Positions 1,030 through 46,465 of a stretch of 64,000 bases of DNA are shown in pieces (the stretch's first letter is position 1; each line of letters opens with the position of its first letter). The notes beneath the pieces are model-generated. The model ran no database searches. It was given only the letters and a program-made list of their open reading frames with translations, and was not told where the DNA came from. Made by a program: the position numbers and the translations under genes. The DNA lies in NCBI GenBank assembly GCA_964602715.1, contig CAZRSB010000002.1, positions 1,309-65,308 on the forward strand, given 5' to 3'. The stretch comes from an uncultured Thermoplasmata archaeon. Lineage in GTDB: Archaea; Thermoplasmatota; Thermoplasmata; Halarchaeoplasmatales; Halarchaeoplasmataceae.

Positions 1030-2367
1030 ATGATAAAAAAAGAAAAAAAGGTAAGCTTTAAAAGTATATTCTGTATATCAGTAGTTATCATATTATCGAT
1101 TACACTTTTCACACCCGTTTTTGTTGCCGAAGGTCGTCTTTCAGACTCTTCATGGCCGAAGATAAACAGAAACAATCGGAATACTGGTAGACTTGAAGAG
1201 GGGGAAGAGTTAACAAATCAGACTCAATGGACTTTTGAGACTGGAGATATGATAGACGGGTCACCCGTTATCGGTCCAGATGGATCAATTTATATCGGTT
1301 CATATGATGGTCATCTTTACGCATTGCGTGAAGATGGTACAGAGATATGGTCTTACAATGCTTCCTCAGCGATCTCATCTACCCCGGTTGTGGCTGAAAA
1401 CGGAATGATCTATTTTGTGACAGTAGATGGAGAGTTGTACTCTCTGAACGATGAAGGAGAAAAAAACTGGATGAGAGACGACTTGATCGGTCGTGGGCGA
1501 TTTGGCGAAGCAGTGATTTCATCTCCAGTGATAAGAGAGGATGGCAGTATTTTGGTAGCATCACAGGATGTTTATTCGGTTAGACCTGATGGGACTGAGG
1601 AATGGAATTATACACATAAATTCGAGGGTGAAGATACTTCTAGTCCAGGAGTTGTTCAATCTTCTCCAGCTGTAGATGAAGATGGAGACATATTCTTTGG
1701 TTATAATGTTTACACACCTAATGGTTACATCGGACTCATGATCTCCTTAGATTCAGAGGGAGAGGAAAGATGGGAATACCCTATTAAGGAAGAAGGTGAA
1801 TGGGAATTAGGATCATCGATTTTGTCATCTCCCGCATTGAATCAAGATGGAGATATCTATTTTGGATCACACGATGATAGATTGTATTCTCTAGATAGCG
1901 ATGGAGAGGAAAGATGGAACTATTCGACTGCTGGGTCGATCAGTTCCTCGCCAGCTCTAGGAGAGGATGGTACGATCTATGTCGGTTCTGAGGATGGAAA
2001 CCTATATGCCTTAACTCCTGATGGTGAAAGAGAATGGAATTTTGAAACAGGTGGTGAGGTGTATTCATCGCCTGCTGTCGGACCAGAGGGTATGATATAT
2101 TTTGGTTCTTATGATAATCATACCTATTCTGTTTATCCTAACGGTACAGAGAGATGGAGAGTTGAAACCGGTGATTCGATATTTTCTTCTCCAGCGTTAG
2201 ATTCTGATGGAAGACTTTACATCGCTTCTTTCGATCAAAAGATATACTCTATCGGCGAAGCCATAGAAATGGAAGATATTGAGGACGGATCTCAAATACC
2301 TCAGATGGTAATACCTATCATCATAATTATTTTGTTCCTGGTATTACTAGCTCCTTCAAAATCATAA
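1030..2367 (+). CDS. PQQ-like beta-propeller repeat protein, secreted and C-terminally membrane-anchored
   Basis: N-terminal signal/TM (VVIILSITLFTPVFVA). At least seven repeats of the pattern DG.iYiGS.DG.LYAL....G.E.W (PQQ-type propeller blades). C-terminal hydrophobic helix PIIIIILFLVLLAPSKS. Confidence 0.6.
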   Translation: MIKKEKKVSFKSIFCISVVIILSITLFTPVFVAEGRLSDSSWPKINRNNRNTGRLEEGEELTNQTQWTFETGDMIDGSPVIGPDGSIYIGSYDGHLYALREDGTEIWSYNASSAISSTPVVAENGMIYFVTVDGELYSLNDEGEKNWMRDDLIGRGRFGEAVISSPVIREDGSILVASQDVYSVRPDGTEEWNYTHKFEGEDTSSPGVVQSSPAVDEDGDIFFGYNVYTPNGYIGLMISLDSEGEERWEYPIKEEGEWELGSSILSSPALNQDGDIYFGSHDDRLYSLDSDGEERWNYSTAGSISSSPALGEDGTIYVGSEDGNLYALTPDGEREWNFETGGEVYSSPAVGPEGMIYFGSYDNHTYSVYPNGTERWRVETGDSIFSSPALDSDGRLYIASFDQKIYSIGEAIEMEDIEDGSQIPQMVIPIIIIILFLVLLAPSKS

Positions 2368-3418: not shown

Positions 3419-6400
3419 ATGAATTGGAAAAAAATACTATCTTTAGCGATAGTATCGATTTTAGTATTCAGTGTACTAGTGAGTTTAGGCACACCCGTAA
3501 GTGCTGACGAGCCAGGTGAACCCGTAAATGAGGTGAGTTTTGACACCACATTAGAGATGTCAGAAGGCGCAGCTGCAGCTGCAGAGGGAAATGCACATAT
3601 CTTCATGCACGCTGTAGATGGAGATGTATATCAGGGACTTCCATCAGATATTCTAGCTAACCTAGATCACTGGGAAGTCTTTGGTGGATATAATCCATGG
3701 CTGATAAATCCTGCCCACGAAGGGAACGGTACATCGGAAGCATTGGCCGCAGTAGATGAAGGATGGATAGACGATACCGATGAGATCAATTACCTTGCGC
3801 ACAGTACAGAAGAAGGTTGGACGGTAAATCCGTTTGCCTGCAACGACTTCAGATTCTCTCTGCAGTACTTAGACAGAGTAGGAATGATAGAGGATCTTTT
3901 GGATGGGTTCGGTGAACCTAGATGGGGATCTTTCCTTTCTAGTTCCGACCTTTGGATGGAAGAATTCTATCCCGAGATAAACGAACCGTATGGACTAACC
4001 GGTGAAGGAAACGAAGATCTGATGTGGGATATGTTGGAGTATTCATTAGAAAATATGAAAGACAATATAGCCTTCGGTGAGTTCGAAGGAACTATAGGTG
4101 ATGAATGGACTTATACAAACCCAGATGGTGAAACACACGATATCGAGATAAGAATACCCGCAAGAGTTGAAGACTGGAGAATGGAAAAAGGATATTGGAC
4201 TGAAGATCTGATGCAAGAAATAGGATTTGAGACACACGTAGAGCCAGTTGATTTAGCTGGTGCTTTACCAATGATGCAGGGTGCATCCGACGAATACGAC
4301 AATCTAGAATGGCATGTATTCATGTCAGGTTGGATCTCTACTGCTATAACAGCTTATCATCATTGGGGCAATGCGCACATGTTCTATCCGTGGTATGCTA
4401 TGGAACCTGTTGGTCACGCGCAGCCAGAAGGACACTGGAGTTATGGTGAAGAGGCTTTAGATAACCCGATAGGACCATCTGACGAATTCAGAGAAGAATA
4501 TGAGTTGCCTGAGGAACGACCATTCGAAACTTTAGGAGATGCCAATGAAAGATCAGATGAGCTAACTGATGGTATTGTAGAAGATGAAGAGGAGTATATG
4601 GAAGATATGGTAAGATTAGAATCGGCTGGTGTACAAGAATCAGTGAATTTCTTCCTTGTATCGACGTTAGACTTCTATCCGTACAATCCAGAGATTATGG
4701 AAACCGCTGTTCCTGAAGCTGTAGCGGGATATGACACCTATTTTGGTCCAAGGACGATGAGAACTTATGAAGAACATGGTTGGGACGCAGGTGACTTCCA
4801 AGGCATCATAATGACCGGTGAAGCGCAACCATATATGGATCCATGGAATGTTTATGGAGGTTCTGACGACGTCTACGGTGAATATCAGAGAAGATTTTTG
4901 CGAGAATATTCAGATTGGGCTCATCCACAGACAGGAGAATACATGCAGTTAGGTAATTACTGGGAATCCGAACTTAGTGATGAAAACAGACTGCAGGTCT
5001 TCGAGAGACATGGTGATATAGACTCGTTATATGATGTGGAAGAAACCCATGATATACCAGAGGACGCTGTAAAATATGTGCCTGGCGAAGAGAGATGGAT
5101 GACTGCGGAAGAGATGTTAGAGCTCGATCCTGATGAATTTGAATTGGACTATTTAGAAGATCTAGAGACCGATCTGAAGGTAACGATGGATATACATGAT
5201 TACTATCAATACCATGCGCCAGATGGTTGGGAGCCTGCTGATTTCGATCTGAGTCATGTGATGTTCAACTGGGCTAGAGTTAGGGAACTTGGAGATGAGG
5301 AAGGACCATTCCACTCTGAAACAGCAGATCTCAACAGAGGTGCTTGGGATCAAACTTACGCGTTCGAATTTGATGAGGAGAAAGGAACTTTCACCATATA
5401 CGGTGATTATGAAATGCCAGTAGATAGATTGATAGGCAATTTCTTTTCAACTTTACCAGAAGTTCATCCAACGACTTACTGGGGATTCGACTACTTACAT
5501 GATTCTCCTGATTACGCTTATGAGGCAGGTGAATGGGATCAAATACACCAGCTGATCGACCGTCACTGTCAGGACATGCTTGATGAGCTTGATGAATGGT
5601 ATGACATGCTACCCCCGATGCTGGACGCTGACAATATACCGGAAGAATGGCAGGATGCTCTTGCCTGGGATCTAGATGAATGGCAGGAATCTATAGACTA
5701 TGTTGAAGCGTTTATTGATGAGAGAGAACATGCATTCCTAAGCATTGGACCATTTGAGTTGCTGTATTACGATGAAGACGATCACGAGATGGATATTCAG
5801 CGATTCGAACACTATGGATATCCACAGCCAGGTGAATCGGCCTATGATGTATTAGAAAGAGCAGGTATACCAGAGGACGAATGGGATGATCACGTTGTTG
5901 ATGGAATGGGCGACCATGTGTTTGAGTACGGTTACTGGACTGAACAATTCCACATTGAAGATGTCGACTTCCTTGATGTTTCAGCTCCAGCCAGTGTAGA
6001 CGCTGGATCTACGTTTAACATCGGAGCAGAAGCTACATGGGAGACCTTGTTCCCAGAACCAGGTCAGGCCAATCTAGAGCATATCTTCGATTATCGTTTC
6101 ACCATCAGAGATTCTGTGATGGGCGAAGAACTTCTAGTAATCGGTAGTGAAGATATTGATGCGGAACATTTAGACCTTAGTAGTACTTTTGACGCTTTTG
6201 ATGTACTCGCTGATCTACCGGCAGGAGAGTACCATATCCAGTTCGAGATACAGGTAGAAGAAGGAGATCCGTGGGCACATGAGGCCATACCTATAGTTTT
6301 CGACGCACCAGCAGCACAGATAGAAGGAGATATGGAAGTTGATCCAGCTGATGAGATAGAAGCAGGAGAAACGGCGACGATAACAGCAGACGTAGAAAAC

Positions 6401-8158
6401 ATTGTAGATGTAGATGCTGAACTTCAGATATGGATCGATGGATACGGAGTCGGAGAGATGATCCACACAGAAATGATATCACCGGGAGAACACACCATCG
6501 AAGTCGAGCACACATTTGAGGCTCCGGCTAGGATGAGTCAGATCCAGCTTCACGATGTCGGCGGCTTCCAGTTCGTAGATGAAGTTGAAGAATATGAGGT
6601 ATACGAAGTCTATGAATTAGAGACAGCTTCGACAGAAGGTGGAGAAGTAGTCGCACCTGGAGAAGGAACATTTGAAGAGAAGACAACCCTTGAGAGGGAT
6701 GATGACGCTGAAGATGATGACGCTGAAGAATATATAGTTGTCAATCCTGTGGTAGACTTAGCAGCAGAAGCAGAAGACGGCTATACGTTCTATGGATGGA
6801 CAGACGATGTAGATGGTGCTGATGTAGCACAGATAGCTGATCCAGCAGCCGCAGATACAGAGATCACGATGGTAGATGATCATTCTATTACAGCTGTATT
6901 CGAAGAAGAAAGACCAGACTTTGTGATAACGGACTTCGAAGTCGATCCAGTAGAAGGAGACATCCCACTTGAAGTGACTATAACCGCTGAGATAGAGAAC
7001 GTCGGCGACGCCGAGGGAACTATAGCTTTAGAAACTGATGATGTAGAGATCAACAGTTGGGCCCTCGCACCTGGTGAGGACGCAACAGTAGACGAAACAT
7101 ACACCTACGAAGAAGAAGGTGTGTATGAAGTTCTCCTCGGTGAAGAAAGGATAGAGGTAGTGGCAGGAGATATAGAGACCTTCGAGCTTACCATAAACGC
7201 AGAAGATGGCGGTACGACCGATCCTGAGCCGGATACGTACACTCATGAAGAAGGCGCCGAAGTCACGGTAAAAGCGATCCCGGACGAAGGTTATGTCTTC
7301 GACGAATGGACAGGCGACTACGAAGGAGAGGACGAAGAGATCACCGTAACCATGGACGATGACAAGGAGATAACGGCCCACTTCGAGGCTGAAGAGTATG
7401 AATTGACCATCGATATCGAAGGCGAAGGCACTACCGATCCTGAAGCAGGTACACATTCCTATGATTACGGAGAAGAAGTGACGGTAACAGCTGAAGCAGC
7501 TGATGGATGGGAATTCGTTGAATGGACAGGAGATTACGAAGGAGAAGACGAAGAGATCACGATCACGATGGACGAAGACAAAGAAGTAACAGCCGTATTC
7601 GAAGAGATACCGACCTATGAACTTACAGTGGAGATAGAAGGCGAAGGCGAAGTAGATATAGATCCAGATGAAGATGAATACGAAGAAGGAACAGATGTAA
7701 CATTGACAGCAGACGCAGACGAACATTGGTATTTTGCTGAGTGGACAGGAGATTACGAAGGAGAAGATGAAGAGATAACCATCACGATGGACGAAGATAA
7801 GGATATAACAGCTGTATTCGAAGAGAGCACTTACTCACTCACATTCGAAGTTATAGATGATGATGACGAAGATCCGATAGAAGATGCAGAGATAGTCCTA
7901 GAAAAAGATGGCGAAGAGTGGGAAGGAGAAACTGACGAAGACGGAATTTACACCTTTACAGATCTCGAACCAGGCAACTACGAGTGGGAAGTAAGCCACG
8001 ATGATTACGAGTCCGAAGACGGCGAAATAGACCTAACTGAAGATACCACGATAACGGTGGAACTAGAAGAGGACGTTGGAATACCAGGATTCACAGTAGC
8101 ACTGTTAGCAGTATCTGCATTCATAGCAGTTGCTATCTATTCCAAAAAGAAACAATAA
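3419..8158 (+). CDS. oppA: giant (1579 aa) OppA/DppA-like family-5 substrate-binding protein with C-terminal tandem InlB B-repeat-like domains and a PGF-CTERM anchor
   Basis: Signal peptide (ILSLAIVSILVFSVLVSLGTPVSA). About 130 aa in, TVNPFACNDFRFSLQYLDRVGMIEDLL matches the family-5 SBP signature (NPF...R.A...AIDR). It lies directly upstream of oppBCDF on the same strand. The C-terminal third carries 3 near-identical GYxF(D/V/A)EWTGDYEGEDEEITxTMDEDK modules. The protein ends GIPGFTVALLAVSAFIAVAIYSKKKQ (PGF-CTERM). Confidence 0.6.
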   Translation: MNWKKILSLAIVSILVFSVLVSLGTPVSADEPGEPVNEVSFDTTLEMSEGAAAAAEGNAHIFMHAVDGDVYQGLPSDILANLDHWEVFGGYNPWLINPAHEGNGTSEALAAVDEGWIDDTDEINYLAHSTEEGWTVNPFACNDFRFSLQYLDRVGMIEDLLDGFGEPRWGSFLSSSDLWMEEFYPEINEPYGLTGEGNEDLMWDMLEYSLENMKDNIAFGEFEGTIGDEWTYTNPDGETHDIEIRIPARVEDWRMEKGYWTEDLMQEIGFETHVEPVDLAGALPMMQGASDEYDNLEWHVFMSGWISTAITAYHHWGNAHMFYPWYAMEPVGHAQPEGHWSYGEEALDNPIGPSDEFREEYELPEERPFETLGDANERSDELTDGIVEDEEEYMEDMVRLESAGVQESVNFFLVSTLDFYPYNPEIMETAVPEAVAGYDTYFGPRTMRTYEEHGWDAGDFQGIIMTGEAQPYMDPWNVYGGSDDVYGEYQRRFLREYSDWAHPQTGEYMQLGNYWESELSDENRLQVFERHGDIDSLYDVEETHDIPEDAVKYVPGEERWMTAEEMLELDPDEFELDYLEDLETDLKVTMDIHDYYQYHAPDGWEPADFDLSHVMFNWARVRELGDEEGPFHSETADLNRGAWDQTYAFEFDEEKGTFTIYGDYEMPVDRLIGNFFSTLPEVHPTTYWGFDYLHDSPDYAYEAGEWDQIHQLIDRHCQDMLDELDEWYDMLPPMLDADNIPEEWQDALAWDLDEWQESIDYVEAFIDEREHAFLSIGPFELLYYDEDDHEMDIQRFEHYGYPQPGESAYDVLERAGIPEDEWDDHVVDGMGDHVFEYGYWTEQFHIEDVDFLDVSAPASVDAGSTFNIGAEATWETLFPEPGQANLEHIFDYRFTIRDSVMGEELLVIGSEDIDAEHLDLSSTFDAFDVLADLPAGEYHIQFEIQVEEGDPWAHEAIPIVFDAPAAQIEGDMEVDPADEIEAGETATITADVENIVDVDAELQIWIDGYGVGEMIHTEMISPGEHTIEVEHTFEAPARMSQIQLHDVGGFQFVDEVEEYEVYEVYELETASTEGGEVVAPGEGTFEEKTTLERDDDAEDDDAEEYIVVNPVVDLAAEAEDGYTFYGWTDDVDGADVAQIADPAAADTEITMVDDHSITAVFEEERPDFVITDFEVDPVEGDIPLEVTITAEIENVGDAEGTIALETDDVEINSWALAPGEDATVDETYTYEEEGVYEVLLGEERIEVVAGDIETFELTINAEDGGTTDPEPDTYTHEEGAEVTVKAIPDEGYVFDEWTGDYEGEDEEITVTMDDDKEITAHFEAEEYELTIDIEGEGTTDPEAGTHSYDYGEEVTVTAEAADGWEFVEWTGDYEGEDEEITITMDEDKEVTAVFEEIPTYELTVEIEGEGEVDIDPDEDEYEEGTDVTLTADADEHWYFAEWTGDYEGEDEEITITMDEDKDITAVFEESTYSLTFEVIDDDDEDPIEDAEIVLEKDGEEWEGETDEDGIYTFTDLEPGNYEWEVSHDDYESEDGEIDLTEDTTITVELEEDVGIPGFTVALLAVSAFIAVAIYSKKKQ
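7180..7830. repeat. three tandem ~216-219 bp near-identical DNA repeats encoding duplicated InlB B-repeat-like domains inside oppA
   Basis: Three DNA stretches around 7300-7380, 7520-7600 and 7740-7820 are roughly 85-90% identical to one another (gaatggacaggagattacgaaggagaagacgaagagatcac...). Confidence 0.6.
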
Positions 8159-41002: not shown

Positions 41003-41077
41003 GGGCGCGTGGCCTAGCCTGGATAAGGCGCTGCCCTTCTAAGGCAGACGTCATGGGTTCGAATCCCATCGCGTCCG
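41003..41077 (+). tRNA. tRNA-Arg (anticodon TCT), with no CCA encoded
   Basis: Manual fold: acceptor GGGCGCG/CGCGTCC (one G-U pair); D-stem GCCT/AGGC; anticodon stem CTGCC/GGCAG with loop CTTCTAA (anticodon TCT); 5-nt variable loop; T-arm ATGGG-TTCGAAT-CCCAT; discriminator G. Confidence 0.85.
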
Positions 41078-41179: not shown

Positions 41180-41515
41180 TCATCTTTGCGCATAGATCTC
41201 CTCCGACTTTCCTAAAACCTCGTCTCTAAAGTATCTACTCAGATCTTTCGGAGTTCTTAGGTCTACTTCTCTATCCCCCAAAATAGATGATAAATCCTCC
41301 TCCATCTGTACCAACTCGAAAAATCCGGGTTTGTGCTGGGGCTCAAACCATACTAGTATATCTATGTCACTTTCATCATCAAAATCTTCTCTTAAGACTG
41401 AACCGAACATAGAGATCTTTTTTATATTGTTTTTTTTACAGAAGCTGATTATCTGGTCTTTGTGTTCGTCTATGATCTTCTTAATATCCGGATGGATTTT
41501 CAGTTCGATTCCCAT
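41180..41515 (-). CDS. minimal nucleotidyltransferase (Pol-beta superfamily, MNT-type) with no adjacent HEPN partner
   Basis: ISMFGSVLREDFDDESDIDILV matches the GS...D.D NTase motif; 111 aa. Confidence 0.75.
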   Translation of the reverse strand: MGIELKIHPDIKKIIDEHKDQIISFCKKNNIKKISMFGSVLREDFDDESDIDILVWFEPQHKPGFFELVQMEEDLSSILGDREVDLRTPKDLSRYFRDEVLGKSEEIYAQR

Positions 41516-41579
41516 CTTATTAATCTATAATTATTACATAAAAGGTATAAAAGAATTGGCTTGATGTACCCCGTTGGTT

Positions 41580-42480
41580 TCGGTTTTACTAAACATATGT
41601 CCATATCCGATCTTTAGAGGGAGATAGACAGAAGCCCCCCTCCGTTCAGGGAGGGGGATGAATCCTCAGGAAAGAATTTCCTGCTCTCACTCAGCAGGTG
41701 TGCATCGTGATGTCGTGATGTGTGAAAACACACCTTCTACATCTCCACTTTCACTTACCCCCTCCTTCAACCTTTAAATACCTTGAAACAGGTATGTAAA
41801 ATGGTACTTGACGGCTGGTATATCCTGCCCGAAAGTCAAGTCCTGCTTCGCTGGTAAAACAGGTCAAGAGACGCAGGAATCAGAGCTTCCTTCTTTTCTT
41901 CGGAAATCGAAGATTTCCTGTGAAGCAGGCGGGAGTTGGCCCTGAAAAGACAGGGCGTGAAGTTGACCCAACTCTCCCGAAAGGGATGTTGTCTGTTCGA
42001 GAGGGCAGATGACAGAACTCTACAGGAAAGGATTTCCAGTGCTCACTCAGCAGGTGTGCTTCGTGAAGCATATGATTGGGCGTATGTCCTTTCAGGCCGT
42101 GCCTGATGCAGTCCGTGACTGTGTGGACGACAGCCCTTGAGTGCTGAACCTTGTAATCCGCAGAAAGACTTAGTCTTTCGAAGTAATCGAAGCTTACTTT
42201 TCTCACTCAACAATTATGTTTCGTGATTCGAAGGAGAGACGGAATGTTCTCATTCCTACGAAGCTTCCTTGCATCCGCAACAACAGTGAGGATGAAGAGG
42301 ATCGAGAAGAATCGAATTCCCCACCACACCGAAGGTGCAGGCGTCTCCAGTAATGGAACGTCCTCATGGTGAACGAACTGGAAGCCCGATGCCTTTAGGC
42401 GTCGGGAGGAGGTCACAAGATAATTGATCTTATCTTTTTTACGGCGCTCTTTTTTAACTTTTGATTTTTTAAATACCAAT
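41580..42480. ncRNA. GC-rich, apparently non-coding ~0.9-kb island with an internal ~45-nt repeat and strong hairpins; candidate structured RNA(s) of unknown identity
   Basis: Local GC is clearly above the flanking AT-rich DNA. Hairpin CCCCCTCC-GTTCA-GGGAGGGGG at ~41634-41656. Two copies of caggaaag(a/g)atttcc(t/a)g(c/t)gctcactcagcaggtgtgc(a/t)tcgtga at ~41667-41711 and ~42022-42068. The only ORFs here (41880..42206 and 42207..42479, minus strand) encode basic, non-acidic peptides unlike every real protein in the window. Confidence 0.3.
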
Positions 42481-42564
42481 AATTCTATTTAAGCTAGAAA
42501 GCTTCTTTTTTGAAGAAGGAACCTTTCTCCTTGGCTAGGAATTTAAAGAGTCACCTCTATGATA

Positions 42565-43002
42565 TCATCCTGGAAAGGTATCTTTTATATCTCCAATGCT
42601 CATCATCCTTTCATCGGGTATCTCCTGTCCTTTTACGTATACCGGTCTTTCAACTTTTTTCCTTTTCTTTTTTTTAGACTTTTTTGATTCCGTTTCGTAC
42701 CACCGCCAAATTCTAGTTACATGATCAACTCTAACATAGACTTCTTCAAGATTTACCTTTGTCCAATCTATGTAACCTATTTTTTGTTCTTTTTCGATAT
42801 CTTTTCTTGTTTCACCAGATTTTTGCGAAATAGCTTTCCAGTTGATTTTTTTTGCAGGCGCTTGGTAGACCTCTTTTAGTATTATAGTGTTTTTATCAAA
42901 ATCAACTAATTTTCCCAAAAAGGCAAGTCCGTCATCCATCACTACGAGAATGTCTTTATCATTCAAATCTTTCAATTTCTTTTCTAACAATTCATCCAAC
43001 AT
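42565..43002 (-). CDS. Sm-like (LSm) domain protein with a lysine-rich C-terminal extension
   Basis: KDILVVMDDGLAFLGKLVDFDKNTIILKEV fits the Sm1/Sm2 fold pattern. C-terminal KKSKKKKRKKVERP basic tract. Confidence 0.5.
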   Translation of the reverse strand: MLDELLEKKLKDLNDKDILVVMDDGLAFLGKLVDFDKNTIILKEVYQAPAKKINWKAISQKSGETRKDIEKEQKIGYIDWTKVNLEEVYVRVDHVTRIWRWYETESKKSKKKKRKKVERPVYVKGQEIPDERMMSIGDIKDTFPG

Positions 43003-43102
43003 ATAATCCCTCTTAAACTATTATATCGATGTTGCGGTATATCAAATTTACTCAAGATTTTTCTATTTCAAAAATCCATTAAAATGTCTTAATCTTTCAC
43101 AC

Positions 43103-44377
43103 TTATTGATGATATGCCGCTATAGCTCCAAACGCCATTGCTTTTTCCTCTAAAACATCTATTTTCTCACTAAGGTCAAAAGCTTCTTTTTGAAATCCAA
43201 CTTGTATCAAGCTTTTAACCAATTCTAATTTGATAGAATCACTATCTGTTTTTTTCCCTTTTTTAAGAGCCTGAAGTGTTCTCTCTCTCGATTTCTTTAT
43301 TCGATTGTTTTTCATGTATATTTCAGCCAATTCCAATTCTGAAAAAATCTTTAATTGGTTATCTGCAATACTATATATGAACTCCTCTGCTTTTTCGTAT
43401 TCTTCTATTTGAGCATAGTATATCGCTATTTTTTTTGATGCCAGATCTTTTTCAAAGGAGGATTCGATATCACGATAATAATCCATGGCTTTATCGATTT
43501 CATCTCTTTTTAAATAATTCTCTACTAAGGATTCGATCGCTGAGTCCCTTATGTTTTTATTATCTATATGCCTCAAAAGCGAACCGGCCTTTCTAAAAAA
43601 ACCTTCATTAGAATATGTCTCAATGATATCAGCTAATTGAAGATTTTTTTCCTCTTGAGACTTCAGATGAGAGGTCAACTCATCCGCTTTATTTATCCTG
43701 TTCAGTATTATAGAAGCATTGACTAAACACGTTTTGATCCAAGGTATATCGTTATTCTTTTTTATATCTTCTTTTTCGACCAGCTCTATAGTTTTTTTAA
43801 AAAGATCGTCTATATCTTCTATCTCAACTTTAGCTCCTGTTTCTACGCAGAGTGCTATAGGAAATATGTCTTTGTTTTCTTCTGCTATCGTCAATGCTTT
43901 TTCGACAATGTTATTTAATTCTATTCTAGCTTTTTCTTCATAACCTGCTTCAATTTGGTCTTCAACTATATGAATCGCGGTTATCACTCTTTTTTCTTCT
44001 CTTTCTATCTCATTTACGGTATTGAACGCTAATTCGTGAATATTATCTGCAAGGTCATGAAAGTTTCTCTTACCAAATACCGATGCTAAATTTGAAAGTG
44101 TTTTGCACCTTTCTTCTAGATCATCGATCTTTTTTGCATATCTCATGGATTCTAGTCCCATCTTTTTACCTAGATAAATTCTTTTATTCTCAAACATCAT
44201 ATCGGTAATCCAAGCTAGGACCAATGATTTACTTGAGTTAGGAGAGATTGAATGTAGGATTTCAAGAGTTTCTTCAAGAGCTATACCTATTGGAACTTTA
44301 TCTTTCTTCTTAGAAAGATTTTTAGCAATTTTTTTGATTGTGATATCATCGTCTTTCAGATTTGCAAACTCATTCAT
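43103..44377 (-). CDS. hypothetical alpha-helical repeat protein (TPR/HEAT-like)
   Basis: 424 aa, predicted all-helical with repeated ~35-aa amphipathic units; no catalytic motifs recognised. Confidence 0.3.
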   Translation of the reverse strand: MNEFANLKDDDITIKKIAKNLSKKKDKVPIGIALEETLEILHSISPNSSKSLVLAWITDMMFENKRIYLGKKMGLESMRYAKKIDDLEERCKTLSNLASVFGKRNFHDLADNIHELAFNTVNEIEREEKRVITAIHIVEDQIEAGYEEKARIELNNIVEKALTIAEENKDIFPIALCVETGAKVEIEDIDDLFKKTIELVEKEDIKKNNDIPWIKTCLVNASIILNRINKADELTSHLKSQEEKNLQLADIIETYSNEGFFRKAGSLLRHIDNKNIRDSAIESLVENYLKRDEIDKAMDYYRDIESSFEKDLASKKIAIYYAQIEEYEKAEEFIYSIADNQLKIFSELELAEIYMKNNRIKKSRERTLQALKKGKKTDSDSIKLELVKSLIQVGFQKEAFDLSEKIDVLEEKAMAFGAIAAYHQ

Positions 44378-44488
44378 TGGCTTAGATTTAAGATGGTTTT
44401 TGACCCTTTTAAATCTTGTTTTCTAGATCCTACGAACTTCAGATATATGATGCACAAATTTATTAAAGCATTAATTTTACTTTGGACT

Positions 44489-45982
44489 ATGTCTACTTAT
44501 GAAGAAATGCTGGAGATATCCAGCCAGTTAAGAAATTTAGCTAGAGCAATTTCATTATTATCCTGGGATGAAAGAACTTATCTTCCCGAAGGAGCTTTAG
44601 AAGGTAGGTCTGAAACCAAAGCAGAACTATCCCAGATGTACCATAAAAAATTGACATCTGATAAAACAAAAAGGGTCGTGGAAGAGCTGAATAAAGAATC
44701 AGTTCAGGCCGAATTGAATGAAAAGGAGAAAGCGGCAGTAAGAGAGATGACAAGAGACTTTGAAAGGAGATACGAAGTTCCAGAAGAATTGATAAAAGAG
44801 ATGTCAAAAGTCTCTACTAAAGCACAATCTGCTTGGGAAAAAGCTAGGGAAAAATCTGATTTTGAGATGTTTTTACCTCACTTAGAGAAACAGATCGAAC
44901 TAAAGAAAAAAATGGCGGAACACATAGGTTATGAAAACGAACCTTACGATGCTTTGGTAGATGAGTATGAGCCTGGATTTACAGCAAAGAAAATCGAAAA
45001 AGTCTTTGAACCTATGAAAAAAGAATTGACTTCTATCGCTACAGAAATATTTTCGAAAGACGATCCTGGGGAGAATATCTTTGAAGGTAAGAAGTTTGAT
45101 ATAGAAACGCAGAAAAAGATCTGCAGAGAGATAGCTGACCAATTTGGGTATGATTTTGGTCATGGAAGGTTGGACAACGCAGTACATCCTTTTACTATAG
45201 GTATGGATGATGATGTGAGGATAACTAACAGATACAATGAAGATAATTTGAATTCATTGTTCAGCTTGATGCATGAAACAGGTCATGCATTGTATGAACA
45301 GGGGATACCTGAAGAATTGTATGGTCATCCTCTGGGAAAGGGGATATCCATGGGATATCATGAATCGCAGTCCAGATTATGGGAAAATTTTGTTGGTAGG
45401 AGCCCTGAATTCATCGAGTACTTATTCCCTAAACTTTGTGACCATTATCCTAGATTGGAAGATCATAGTAAAGAAGGATTCTATGAAAGAATAAACAGAG
45501 TGAAACCTACATTTATCAGAGTAGAAGCTGATGAGGTCACCTACAATTTACATATCGCATTAAGGTTTGATATCGAGCTGGCCATGTTTAGGGACAAAAT
45601 TGAGCCGGAAGAGGCAAGAACAGTCTGGGAAAACAAAATGGAGGAGTATTTGGACATAGTACCAGAAGATCCAGCAAAAGGGGTCCTTCAGGACGTGCAT
45701 TGGTCCGCAGGACAATTCGGTTACTTCCCATCCTATGCTCTAGGTAACCTATATGCTGCCCAGATATTCAATGAAATTCATGAGGAAATAGATGGACTAG
45801 GAGATAAAATTAGAGAAGGAGATTTTGATGAGTTAAGAAGATGGTTACGTCAAAATATACATCAATATGGTAGAAAGTATCGGGCTAAAGAGATCACTAA
45901 AAGACTGACAGGGGAAAGTCTTAATGAAAAATACCATATCGAATACTTAAAAGATAAATATGGAAGTATCTACAATATATAA
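44489..45982 (+). CDS. M32 carboxypeptidase (carboxypeptidase Taq family)
   Basis: HETGHALYEQG (HExxH), YHESQSRLWEN, IRVEADEVTYNLHI and GVLQDVHWSAGQFGYFPSY are all M32 signature motifs. The ORF track starts at 44393, but the likely start is the MSTYEEML methionine at 44489. Confidence 0.85.
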   Translation: MSTYEEMLEISSQLRNLARAISLLSWDERTYLPEGALEGRSETKAELSQMYHKKLTSDKTKRVVEELNKESVQAELNEKEKAAVREMTRDFERRYEVPEELIKEMSKVSTKAQSAWEKAREKSDFEMFLPHLEKQIELKKKMAEHIGYENEPYDALVDEYEPGFTAKKIEKVFEPMKKELTSIATEIFSKDDPGENIFEGKKFDIETQKKICREIADQFGYDFGHGRLDNAVHPFTIGMDDDVRITNRYNEDNLNSLFSLMHETGHALYEQGIPEELYGHPLGKGISMGYHESQSRLWENFVGRSPEFIEYLFPKLCDHYPRLEDHSKEGFYERINRVKPTFIRVEADEVTYNLHIALRFDIELAMFRDKIEPEEARTVWENKMEEYLDIVPEDPAKGVLQDVHWSAGQFGYFPSYALGNLYAAQIFNEIHEEIDGLGDKIREGDFDELRRWLRQNIHQYGRKYRAKEITKRLTGESLNEKYHIEYLKDKYGSIYNI

Positions 45983-45988
45983 ATAGGA

Positions 45989-46465
45989 TCAATCTGGCTT
46001 TACCATCCTTTTGCTGAGTTCCTTAAAGTGTTTCTGAATGGTTTTCTGAAACTCTTCTAAAGTATCTATTAGAAGAGGAGAGATTTTCTGTTTGATACTC
46101 TTCCAAATATATTCGATAGGATTGAGATCTGGAGAATAGGGCGGTTGAAAGACTAAGATAATGTTGAGTTGATCAGCCCTTTCCCTGGTCTTGTTTGCCC
46201 AGTTACGTTTTGGACCGCCGTCATAATCAGGTTTTAGTCTTTCAATATCAAATTCATCTTCGTTCCATTCTTCTAACCAGTTGTACCCAGTACCTTTTGT
46301 AACCCCCACTTCATCTGCAGCATCTGGAACACTTTTTCCTTCATATAGATGGCGTATGAACATCAGCTTTCGAAGGACTTTTGCTTCTAATTTTTTATCT
46401 TGAATTTTCTCATCTAGTTTCTTTTTTGATATCCACTTTTTGAGATCTTTCGTTCTCGATTTCAT
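45989..46465 (-). mobile_element. internally deleted IS630/Tc1-mariner-family transposase remnant
   Basis: 158-aa ORF with an N-terminal HTH-like region and the C-terminal family signature LVFQPPYSPDLNPIEYIWKSIK, but without the central DD catalytic region. The frame is intact but too short to be a functional DDE transposase. Confidence 0.6.

Follow-up and report, generated by a model that had tools for sequence, protein, structure and literature searches.

The window analysed here comprises 64,000 nucleotides (nt) from an uncultured Thermoplasmata archaeon (assembly GCA_964602715.1, contig CAZRSB010000002.1, positions 1,309 to 65,308 of the forward strand). It carries a tRNA-Arg(TCT) gene at 41003-41077, the sole match to Rfam at gathering score in the whole window, followed by a nucleotidyltransferase gene of the MNT type and, farther on, by an LSm-like gene. 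Between the nucleotidyltransferase and LSm-like genes, a sequence-only reading had placed a non-coding island, rich in guanine and cytosine (GC), with strong hairpins and a duplicated motif at 41580-42480, which comparison with homologues narrowed to about 41613-42417. We interpret this block, with moderate confidence, as a free-standing plus-strand gene that is predicted to be expressed as a large structured non-coding RNA (ncRNA) belonging to a new family. We favour this interpretation because the block is conserved, is non-coding, contains helices with compensatory changes, shows a strand preference and gains or loses discrete modules among its homologues.

The base composition of the island is exceptional for the window, as the sequence-only reading had claimed. 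The 800-nt stretch starting at 41601-41620 has a GC content of 0.491-0.496, which ranks first among all 800-nt windows of the 64 kb (mean 0.390, standard deviation 0.034), and the narrowed block has a GC content of 0.494 against 0.389 in the rest of the window. The stretch next in GC content (5800-7200, 0.46-0.49) lies inside a 1579-aa open reading frame (ORF; 3419-8158) and is thus coding, unlike the island, where six-frame translation gave a longest ORF of 108 aa, on the minus strand. The island also folds far better than shuffled sequence, with minimum free energy (MFE) z-scores of -6.0 on the plus strand and -6.5 on the minus strand. The 8-bp GC hairpin described earlier is present, with arms CCCCCTCC (41636-41643) and GGAGGGGG (41650-41657), but its loop is the 6-nt GTTCAG and not GTTCA. 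Likewise, the duplicated motif of about 45 nt is real: two copies lie 356 nt apart and are 89% identical over 44 nt, with a third, degenerate copy at 42184-42233, about 160 nt beyond the second. The window holds the 18-nt core of the repeat exactly twice, a count that was reached in none of 100 shuffles. As shown below, however, the repeated unit is exactly 48 nt long and is an optional inserted module, not a feature of the RNA itself.

Homologues of the island were found by several routes. An exact-pattern scan with the repeat motif across one genome per species returned two uncultured Thermoplasmata bins: one locus (L001) holds a 670-nt homologue of the whole island, the sole part of the window that aligns to that locus at the DNA level, and the other (L002) holds the short module only, in an unrelated intergenic region. 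Four matches came from scanning 241 million metagenome records with two motifs from loops of the most conserved block. Two of them, L004 and L005, were true and came from the same soda-lake sediment sample (SL_8KL_010_SED), and two (L003 and L006) were chance matches. Antisense ORFs, which gene callers call on the GC-rich DNA of the island, served as queries for protein searches. A single such query of protein collections retrieved L007 from an ENA assembly, and a profile search of 1.84 billion representative proteins retrieved L014/L015 (NCBI GCA_003554965.1 and a JGI metagenome). None was found among the best 8000 candidates for a six-frame 'polyprotein' query, nor among the matches listed for four concatenated frames of the L005 core in a word-indexed protein search. 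There are thus five homologues (L001, L004, L005, L007 and a rearranged copy, L014), from Thermoplasmata bins and from soda-lake and other metagenomes. A further contig (L008), from the assembly of another sample, is 100% identical to positions 42157-46002 of the window and ends at 42157, inside the feature. Our search of the literature on HgcC, a family discussed below, and on structured RNAs of Thermoplasmata found nothing specific. Thermoplasmata of the uncultured group KTK 4A are abundant in hypersaline soda-lake sediments (PMC6146748). Together with the Thermoplasmata bins and the soda-lake samples, this ecological context suggests that the hosts of the family are probably uncultured, halo(alkali)philic Thermoplasmata.

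The homologous cores are 81-93% identical in pairwise comparison. Every homologue is an island with a GC content of 0.49-0.54 set within flanks of 0.34-0.41, and the boundaries of the homology are sharp: it opens with TTAGAG..GATAGACAGAAGCC (41613 in the window) and closes with GGAGGTCACA (42417), with unrelated sequence on either side. The fraction of invariant columns drops to 0 directly beyond the 3' end of the block. Within it, long invariant blocks alternate with variable helices.

The same islands contain open antisense frames, which raise the question of whether the block is instead a protein-coding gene, possibly on the minus strand, that has decayed or was acquired horizontally. The antisense frame at 42479-41880 (minus strand) is open for about 200 codons save for one TGA (42207-42209), which is improbable in random sequence, and all five homologues (L004, L005, L001, L007 and L014) hold intact antisense ORFs of 96-180 aa; the 48-nt inserts, moreover, are multiples of 3. 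Nevertheless, the antisense ORF was rejected as a real gene on its substitution pattern. Between the 96-aa ORFs of L004 and L005, the 26 substitutions are spread evenly over codon positions (7/10/9) and produce 18 non-synonymous against 3 synonymous codon changes. Three-periodicity of substitutions is absent in every sequence pair, the open frame shifts among homologues, and Pfam gave no match. The profile search of 1.84 billion proteins recovered only spurious ORFs on the same RNA loci and one unrelated repeat protein. Furthermore, the compensatory changes and G.U pairs described below lie on the opposite, plus strand. The element encodes no protein. The earlier claim that the island is non-coding therefore stands, its near-open antisense frame notwithstanding, and the decayed foreign gene that the sequence-only reading had offered as one option finds no backing in codon periodicity, Pfam or protein relatives; we regard a coding origin as extremely improbable.

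To examine the fold, we aligned five cores (window, L001, L004, L005 and L007) after removing lineage-specific inserts by hand, giving 522 columns. RNAalifold predicted 123 pairs in 20 helices on this alignment, with 97.2% of cells forming standard pairs. Both sides had changed in 13 of the 123 pairs, compared with 4.8±1.7 in partner shuffles (0 of 500 reached 13), and sliding the partners by 1-3 columns left 0-4 such changes. Compensatory changes cluster in the GC hairpin, the hairpin at 41806-41845, a short core helix, the GGCGUC..ACGUC hairpin and the terminal hairpin, five places in all. In the consensus pairs, G.U cells outnumber A.C cells by 81 to 10, an excess that places the RNA on the plus strand. 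The minimal form of the element, in L005 (486 nt), also folds better than shuffled sequence (MFE z = -5.4). Among the options of the sequence-only reading, a novel structured RNA is accordingly the one that gained ground: five further loci hold a homologous GC-rich island, with sharp boundaries, compensatory changes and no coding signature.

We also asked whether the candidate RNA belongs to a known family, by comparison with Rfam at E<=10 under relaxed filters (window 41400-42700, L005 4330-4860 and L001 1570-2290). In none of these three copies was there a match to the RNase P models (archaeal, bacterial A/B, nuclear and type T), to the archaeal signal recognition particle (SRP) RNA models, or to the models for group I and II introns, GOLLD, ROOL, OLE and HEARO; at gathering score, no RNase P model matched in the window. 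Four further loci had no Rfam match at E<=0.1. A group II intron was considered separately and set aside, since Rfam gave no match and the terminal hairpin is unbulged, with a UUUA loop.

Archaeal RNase P and SRP RNAs deserve closer comparison, as the sequence-only reading had seen weak echoes of both. Like them, the candidate RNA is encoded by a stand-alone, GC-rich, conserved gene of housekeeping-like size, and short strings such as GAAAGUC and ACAGAAC recall RNase P motifs. A version of either RNA in this lineage that is too divergent for the models would explain these features. Yet three independent homologues lack any covariance-model match, so the echoes are not backed by the models, and the candidate RNA is larger than either RNA. 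The segment GAAAGUCAAGUCCUGC pairs locally, with a segment 25 nt downstream (CUGCUU/GAGCAG, including one covarying pair), and not in a long-range helix of the P4 type. The P4 helix itself, of CR-I (GAAAGUCC..) with CR-V (ACAGAA..CCGGCUUA), is not formed: by inspection, the sequence after ACAGAAC is not complementary. The core is also dispensable, to judge from its deletion in L014. A highly divergent RNase P or SRP RNA is thus scarcely credible here.

The best Rfam match in the window was to HgcC (RF00062), which scored 18.3 bits (E 0.15) where the gathering score is 50. This GC-rich ncRNA, whose function is unknown, was first identified in hyperthermophilic Euryarchaeota with AT-rich genomes. 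Like the candidate RNA, it forms a GC-rich non-coding island in AT-rich euryarchaeal genomes, and its 3' hairpin, too, has a UUUA loop with GAGGAGGUCA after it. In the alignment, the 3' hairpin CCCG..CCUUUAGG..CGGG and the tail GAGGAGGUCA are near-identical, almost base for base, and this terminal hairpin and tail are kept in all homologues. A weaker match recurs in L005 (12.8 bits). The RNA could accordingly be a greatly enlarged relative of HgcC, although both scores fall far under 50 and L001 has no match at E<=10. Moreover, in the window the alignment draws its 5' half from a hairpin of an optional insert, which other homologues lack, and skips 109 nt. HgcC measures 130 nt as against 500-800 nt, and the consistent resemblance is limited to the last ~45 nt. 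We consider such kinship very doubtful; the resemblance to HgcC is a lead and not evidence of membership.

In the window, the candidate gene (41613..42417, plus strand) measures 805 nt, of which about 0.5 kb is the core shared with L001, L005, L004, L007 and, in part, L014 and about 310 nt are optional, in five self-contained hairpin inserts; three of these hold related copies of the 48-nt module. All of its parts are given here on the plus strand. It begins with a conserved leader, TTTAGAG-GGA-GATAGACAGAAGC (41613..41635), a motif that also opens the homology in L001, L005 and L014 and that, judging from sequence, could belong to the promoter or else form the RNA's 5' end. The GC hairpin (41636..41657), helix 1 of the predicted structure, is maintained in L001 and L005 through C-G to U-A changes and G.U pairs. 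The first module copy follows at site 1 (41663..41710), as an exact 48-nt gap relative to L005, and scores 75 bits with a covariance model of the module. Farther downstream, TTTAAATACC (41773..41782) is kept in the window, L001, L005 and L007 and was matched in a promoter scan; about 25 poorly conserved nt come after it. This box is possibly a single-stranded A/U-rich segment or an internal archaeal TATA box.

The second of these options gives rise to another account of the locus, in which there are two units: an upstream structured or regulatory element (41613-41770) and a separate RNA transcribed from the TATA-like TTTAAATACC, with a start near 41805. The layout fits this account, in that four sequences keep the TTTAAATA box, after which come the poorly conserved nt and then the first strongly covarying helix. 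L014 fits as well, because it retains the extreme 5' part and the 3' domain and has lost everything between them. On the other hand, no oligo-T terminator separates the two parts, the same 48-nt module sits on both sides of the box, and the G.U pairs in the 5' GC hairpin indicate that the 5' part is itself plus-strand RNA. We hold a division into two units to be distinctly improbable.

Under the interpretation of a single large RNA, the region downstream of the box continues with the covarying hairpin at 41806..41845 (helices 2 and 3), in which four pairs are changed on both sides in L001. An optional 55-nt branched hairpin insert (41869..41923) occurs only in the window and L007, with a gap in L001, L004 and L005; its self-contained fold is closed by GCAGGAA/UUUCCUGU. 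Next to it lies the most conserved part of the core, GCAGGCGGGAGTTGGCCCTGAAAAGACAGGG..GTTGACCCAACTCTCCCGAAAGGGATGT (41925..41989), which comprises a GAAA-tetraloop hairpin and a hairpin with a 6-nt loop. Here 80-83% of columns are invariant in five sequences, and the part is missing in L014. The second module copy (site 2, 42019..42066) is shared with L007 and absent from L004, L005 and L001. An optional 106-nt insert (42156..42261) is found in the window and L001, is absent from L004, L005 and L007, and encloses the nested, degenerate third module copy (50 nt, 42184..42233; 52 bits), which stands between direct TTCGAAG repeats. At the optional 53-nt loop expansion (42274..42326), L001, L007 and L014 have a different 47-nt sequence and L004 and L005 have none.

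The hairpins of the 3' domain (42327..42384) include GGCGTC..CCAGTAATGG..ACGTC (helix 18, three covarying pairs), the loop of which holds a 62-nt AT-rich insert in L007. The terminal hairpin CCCGATGCC-TTTA-GGCGTCGGG and the invariant tail AGGAGGTCACA (42385..42417; helix 20, two covarying pairs) complete the homology and are the only Rfam-like part, through HgcC. By inspection, a non-conserved hairpin, AAGATAA-TTG-(A)TCTTATCTT, and runs of T6 follow at 42418..42455. Termination at oligo-T is established in archaea, and these features are likely a transcription stop. Transcription of the candidate RNA and the ends of the transcript are, in this account, inferred. We predict that the many short helices of the conserved core, about 0.5 kb long, would make up at least three domains: one at the 5' side with the GC hairpin, a central near-invariant region with the GNRA-tetraloop hairpin, and a 3' domain that closes with a hairpin and the tail AGGAGGUCACA, for which pairing back with the RNA is predicted. 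Around this core, hairpin modules that are lineage-specific are inserted at loops and junctions.

One of these modules is the 48-nt unit. Both copies of the motif in the window are exact 48-nt insertions relative to L005 and L004. L001 has site 1 only, L007 has site 2 (site 1 is not scorable there, because the contig end truncates the 5' part), L005 has neither, and L014 has site 1 in part. The module consists of two hairpins: the first is CAGGAAA-nnn-UUUCCUG, and the second is built from UCAC, a 3x3 internal loop, GCA, a tetraloop, UGC and GUGA. Counted over seven copies, these hairpins contain 5 pairs changed on both sides, compared with 1.4±1.0 in shuffles, and in the third copy changes from A-U to C-G and from G-C to A-U keep the second hairpin paired. 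Between genomes, the counterparts of each copy share 92-96% identity and keep copy-specific bases; both copies, then, are old and constrained. The covariance model found no copies in 103 kb beyond the seven from which it was built. Judging from sequence conservation, the module with its invariant hairpin motif may well have a function within the RNA.

Short inserts present in only some orthologues of a structured RNA gene are reminiscent of archaeal bulge-helix-bulge (BHB) introns in tRNA and rRNA genes. We considered splicing of the inserts with a script that tested the permitted boundary registers for H=4 with flanking helices of at least 3 bp. Unlike such introns, module copies 1 and 2 and the 55-, 106- and 53-nt inserts lack the canonical 3-4-3 geometry at their boundaries, and BHB splicing was rejected for them; the nested 50-nt copy approaches it, with a 4/3/2 geometry in one of 8 boundary registers.

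The 48-nt module and the other inserts can also be compared with palindromic elements, namely clusters of repetitive extragenic palindromes (REP) and bacterial interspersed mosaic elements (BIME), Rickettsia palindromic elements and miniature inverted-repeat transposable elements (MITEs). These too are short hairpin units that are present or absent at precise sites and are sometimes nested or arrayed. The units seen here lie in an RNA gene and in a transposase-like ORF, and the nested copy is bracketed by a 7-nt direct repeat. The two 48-nt copies differ from such elements in having no target-site duplication and no linked transposase, as well as in their conservation between genomes (92-96%) and their invariant hairpin with internal loop and tetraloop.

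Related hairpins occur apart from the large RNA. In L002 (1-420), the module stands alone (278-333), with three GGAA..TTCC hairpins adjoining (102-203) and flanking direct repeats ATATGAGCTGYGGTGGA; the rest of the large RNA is missing from this locus. A zinc ribbon at the N terminus and a helix-turn-helix mark a transposase-like ORF at L009 (5273-6345, the same in L010) that is split into pieces in different frames. The inserts that interrupt it consist of perfect 8-11-bp hairpins, GGAATTTTC-nnn-GAAAATTCC, five of which were scored in about 600 nt against 0.1 expected; MITE- or REP-like elements, or else an intervening sequence of a new kind, could account for them. The outer 106-nt insert of the window also occurs at L009, a locus unrelated to the RNA, and in L014, in both cases as a 56-nt form without the nested copy. 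The sequences thus suggest that the inserts of the RNA belong to a wider set of small, putatively mobile hairpin elements in these archaea. To our knowledge, small hairpin elements that enter RNA and protein genes have not been described for Thermoplasmata. The inserts of the candidate RNA would, in our interpretation, be tolerated or co-opted copies of elements that circulate in these archaea.

The rearranged copy, L014 (545-1150, minus strand; the same as L015), retains the 5' leader, the GC hairpin and the first module hairpin in its site-1 context. There follows an array of about 215 nt with eight short perfect hairpins of the GGAAUUU..AAAUUCC type, and then the second module hairpin in its site-2 context and the 3' domain. 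The arrangement looks like the outcome of recombination between two module copies followed by decay. Just upstream of this copy, a GC-rich, ORF-poor stretch (1230-1440, minus strand) has no Rfam match at E<=0.1.

The gene neighbours differ at each locus. In the window they are the tRNA-Arg and MNT nucleotidyltransferase genes on one side and the LSm-like gene on the other; in L001 two genes for major facilitator superfamily transporters; in L004 an amidohydrolase gene; in L005 small ORFs and, from a head-tailed virus, a gene for a portal-MuF fusion; and in L007 a gene for a HAD hydrolase. The LSm-like protein had been suggested as a binding partner. This idea gained no support, as its Pfam LSm match (20 bits) is below the threshold of 23.4, and neither an LSm-like nor a nucleotidyltransferase gene is present at any other homologous locus. 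Both were rejected as conserved partners; relatives of the nucleotidyltransferase occur in ordinary MntA-HepT pairs without the RNA.

Several observations concern these neighbours in their own right. The nucleotidyltransferase gene of the window (41180-41515, minus strand) encodes an MntA-type antitoxin without an adjoining HepT toxin gene, and the tRNA-Arg gene comes next. In relatives at least 90% identical on other contigs, HepT is always directly downstream, so that the window gene, with tRNA-Arg in the place of HepT, is the orphaned half of a toxin-antitoxin pair. On the other side of the island, a stretch of low GC content (42450-44450, 0.28-0.34 against an average of 0.39) spans the LSm-like gene and a 424-aa ORF without a Pfam family; it may be a foreign island beside a tRNA gene. 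A search for an att repeat of the tRNA 3' end, as a mark of an integration site, found none. In L005 (373-4044 and 4850-5191), small ORFs, each with an upstream repeated motif TATAAGGGGTGAAAACTGATGG, and the portal-MuF gene (PHROG portal, E 3.5e-30) surround the element, which places at least one copy inside or beside a head-tailed (pro)virus.

Several points weigh against a conserved, functional RNA gene. The core structure derives from only five sequences, two of them truncated and most 89-93% identical, and the pairs were counted on the same alignment that gave the structure. Several long-range helices consist of invariant bases only and differ between two RNAalifold runs, and the predictions do not fix the partner of the AGGAGGUCAC tail among the helices. 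In L014, about 310 nt that include the invariant core are missing, a foreign hairpin array is present, and the otherwise invariant tail is mutated to GGGAGAAGGTAAC with two uncompensated changes; the loss of the core and the mutated tail indicate that the gene can decay. The 241 million metagenome records held only two true matches, both from one soda-lake sample, so that either the family is rare or the exact pattern of the scan was overly strict. The element is cut by a contig end in three of the seven contigs that bear it (L004 at position 1, L007 at position 1262 and L008 at window position 42157), the end of L008 falling no more than 1 nt from where the optional 106-nt insert starts. Such ends in three independent assemblies suggest population variants with and without inserts, or repeats that break assemblies. 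Lastly, the L005 copy lies between the small ORFs and the virus portal-MuF gene.

The last two of these points, in particular, lend themselves to the main alternative explanation, by which the whole unit of 0.5-0.8 kb is a non-coding mobile element or cargo, either large and MITE-like or a virus- or plasmid-borne RNA comparable to GOLLD and ROOL, and its conservation serves that element and not the cell. The differing neighbourhoods agree with mobility, as do the position of the window copy beside a tRNA gene and an orphan MNT antitoxin and next to a low-GC stretch, the decayed copy in L014 and the accumulation of small hairpin elements within the unit. However, inspection revealed no terminal inverted repeats at the ends of the unit, and the 3' end of the tRNA is not repeated. 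The unit is present in a single copy in the 64-kb window, with none further in about 100 kb of related loci, and no match was found in IMG/VR, INPHARED or PLSDB, by three pattern scans of viral contigs and by BLAST of phage and plasmid sets. Such a patchwork of invariant blocks and covarying helices typifies a folded RNA with a function, not recent transposon copies. Mobility and RNA function are also compatible, as an RNA borne by a mobile element can still be a structured ncRNA. On balance, we judge it unlikely that the unit is chiefly a mobile element.

For a large structured RNA, as we interpret the block, the nearest analogues in size, complexity and modular periphery are the orphan large ncRNAs of bacteria, by analogy and not by homology. 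OLE, GOLLD, ROOL and HEARO RNAs resemble the candidate in their length (0.5-0.8 kb), many helices, stand-alone genes and conserved cores whose periphery varies. GOLLD and ROOL RNAs are carried along with prophages and lie at times next to tRNA genes or inside virus DNA; the candidate RNA, too, is sometimes found beside a tRNA gene or within virus DNA. These families differ from it in being bacterial, and the candidate has no Rfam match to them and a distribution that is so far very narrow. No multimeric cages or protein partners are known for the candidate.

The RNA may act in trans through its fold, as a ribonucleoprotein scaffold, a ribozyme-like RNA or an architectural RNA, and we do not think that the role of an antisense or cis regulator would apply. 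Structured RNAs longer than about 500 nt are rare, and nearly every understood class has proved fundamental or surprising (rRNA, RNase P, self-splicing introns, OLE, ROOL/GOLLD); we know of no large orphan class specific to archaea. As a tentative proposal, which we rate as possible but doubtful, the family might represent a new class of large RNA (at least 0.5 kb) in halo(alkali)philic Thermoplasmata and at least one head-tailed virus, of a complexity like that of OLE, GOLLD and ROOL and with a function based on its fold, be it catalysis, an architectural or cage-like role or the scaffolding of a ribonucleoprotein. Such an RNA could also serve as a landing pad for miniature two-hairpin modules, which would move among sites in structured RNA genes and whose invariant loop motif the RNA would have put to use.

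If true, a new class of large archaeal RNA would be notable, yet the family looks narrow and one of its copies is decaying. Its natural series of deletions and insertions, from 0.5 to 0.8 kb, already marks the parts of the RNA that are dispensable. The insert modules, in turn, point to small hairpin elements in uncultured archaea that enter RNA genes and protein genes.

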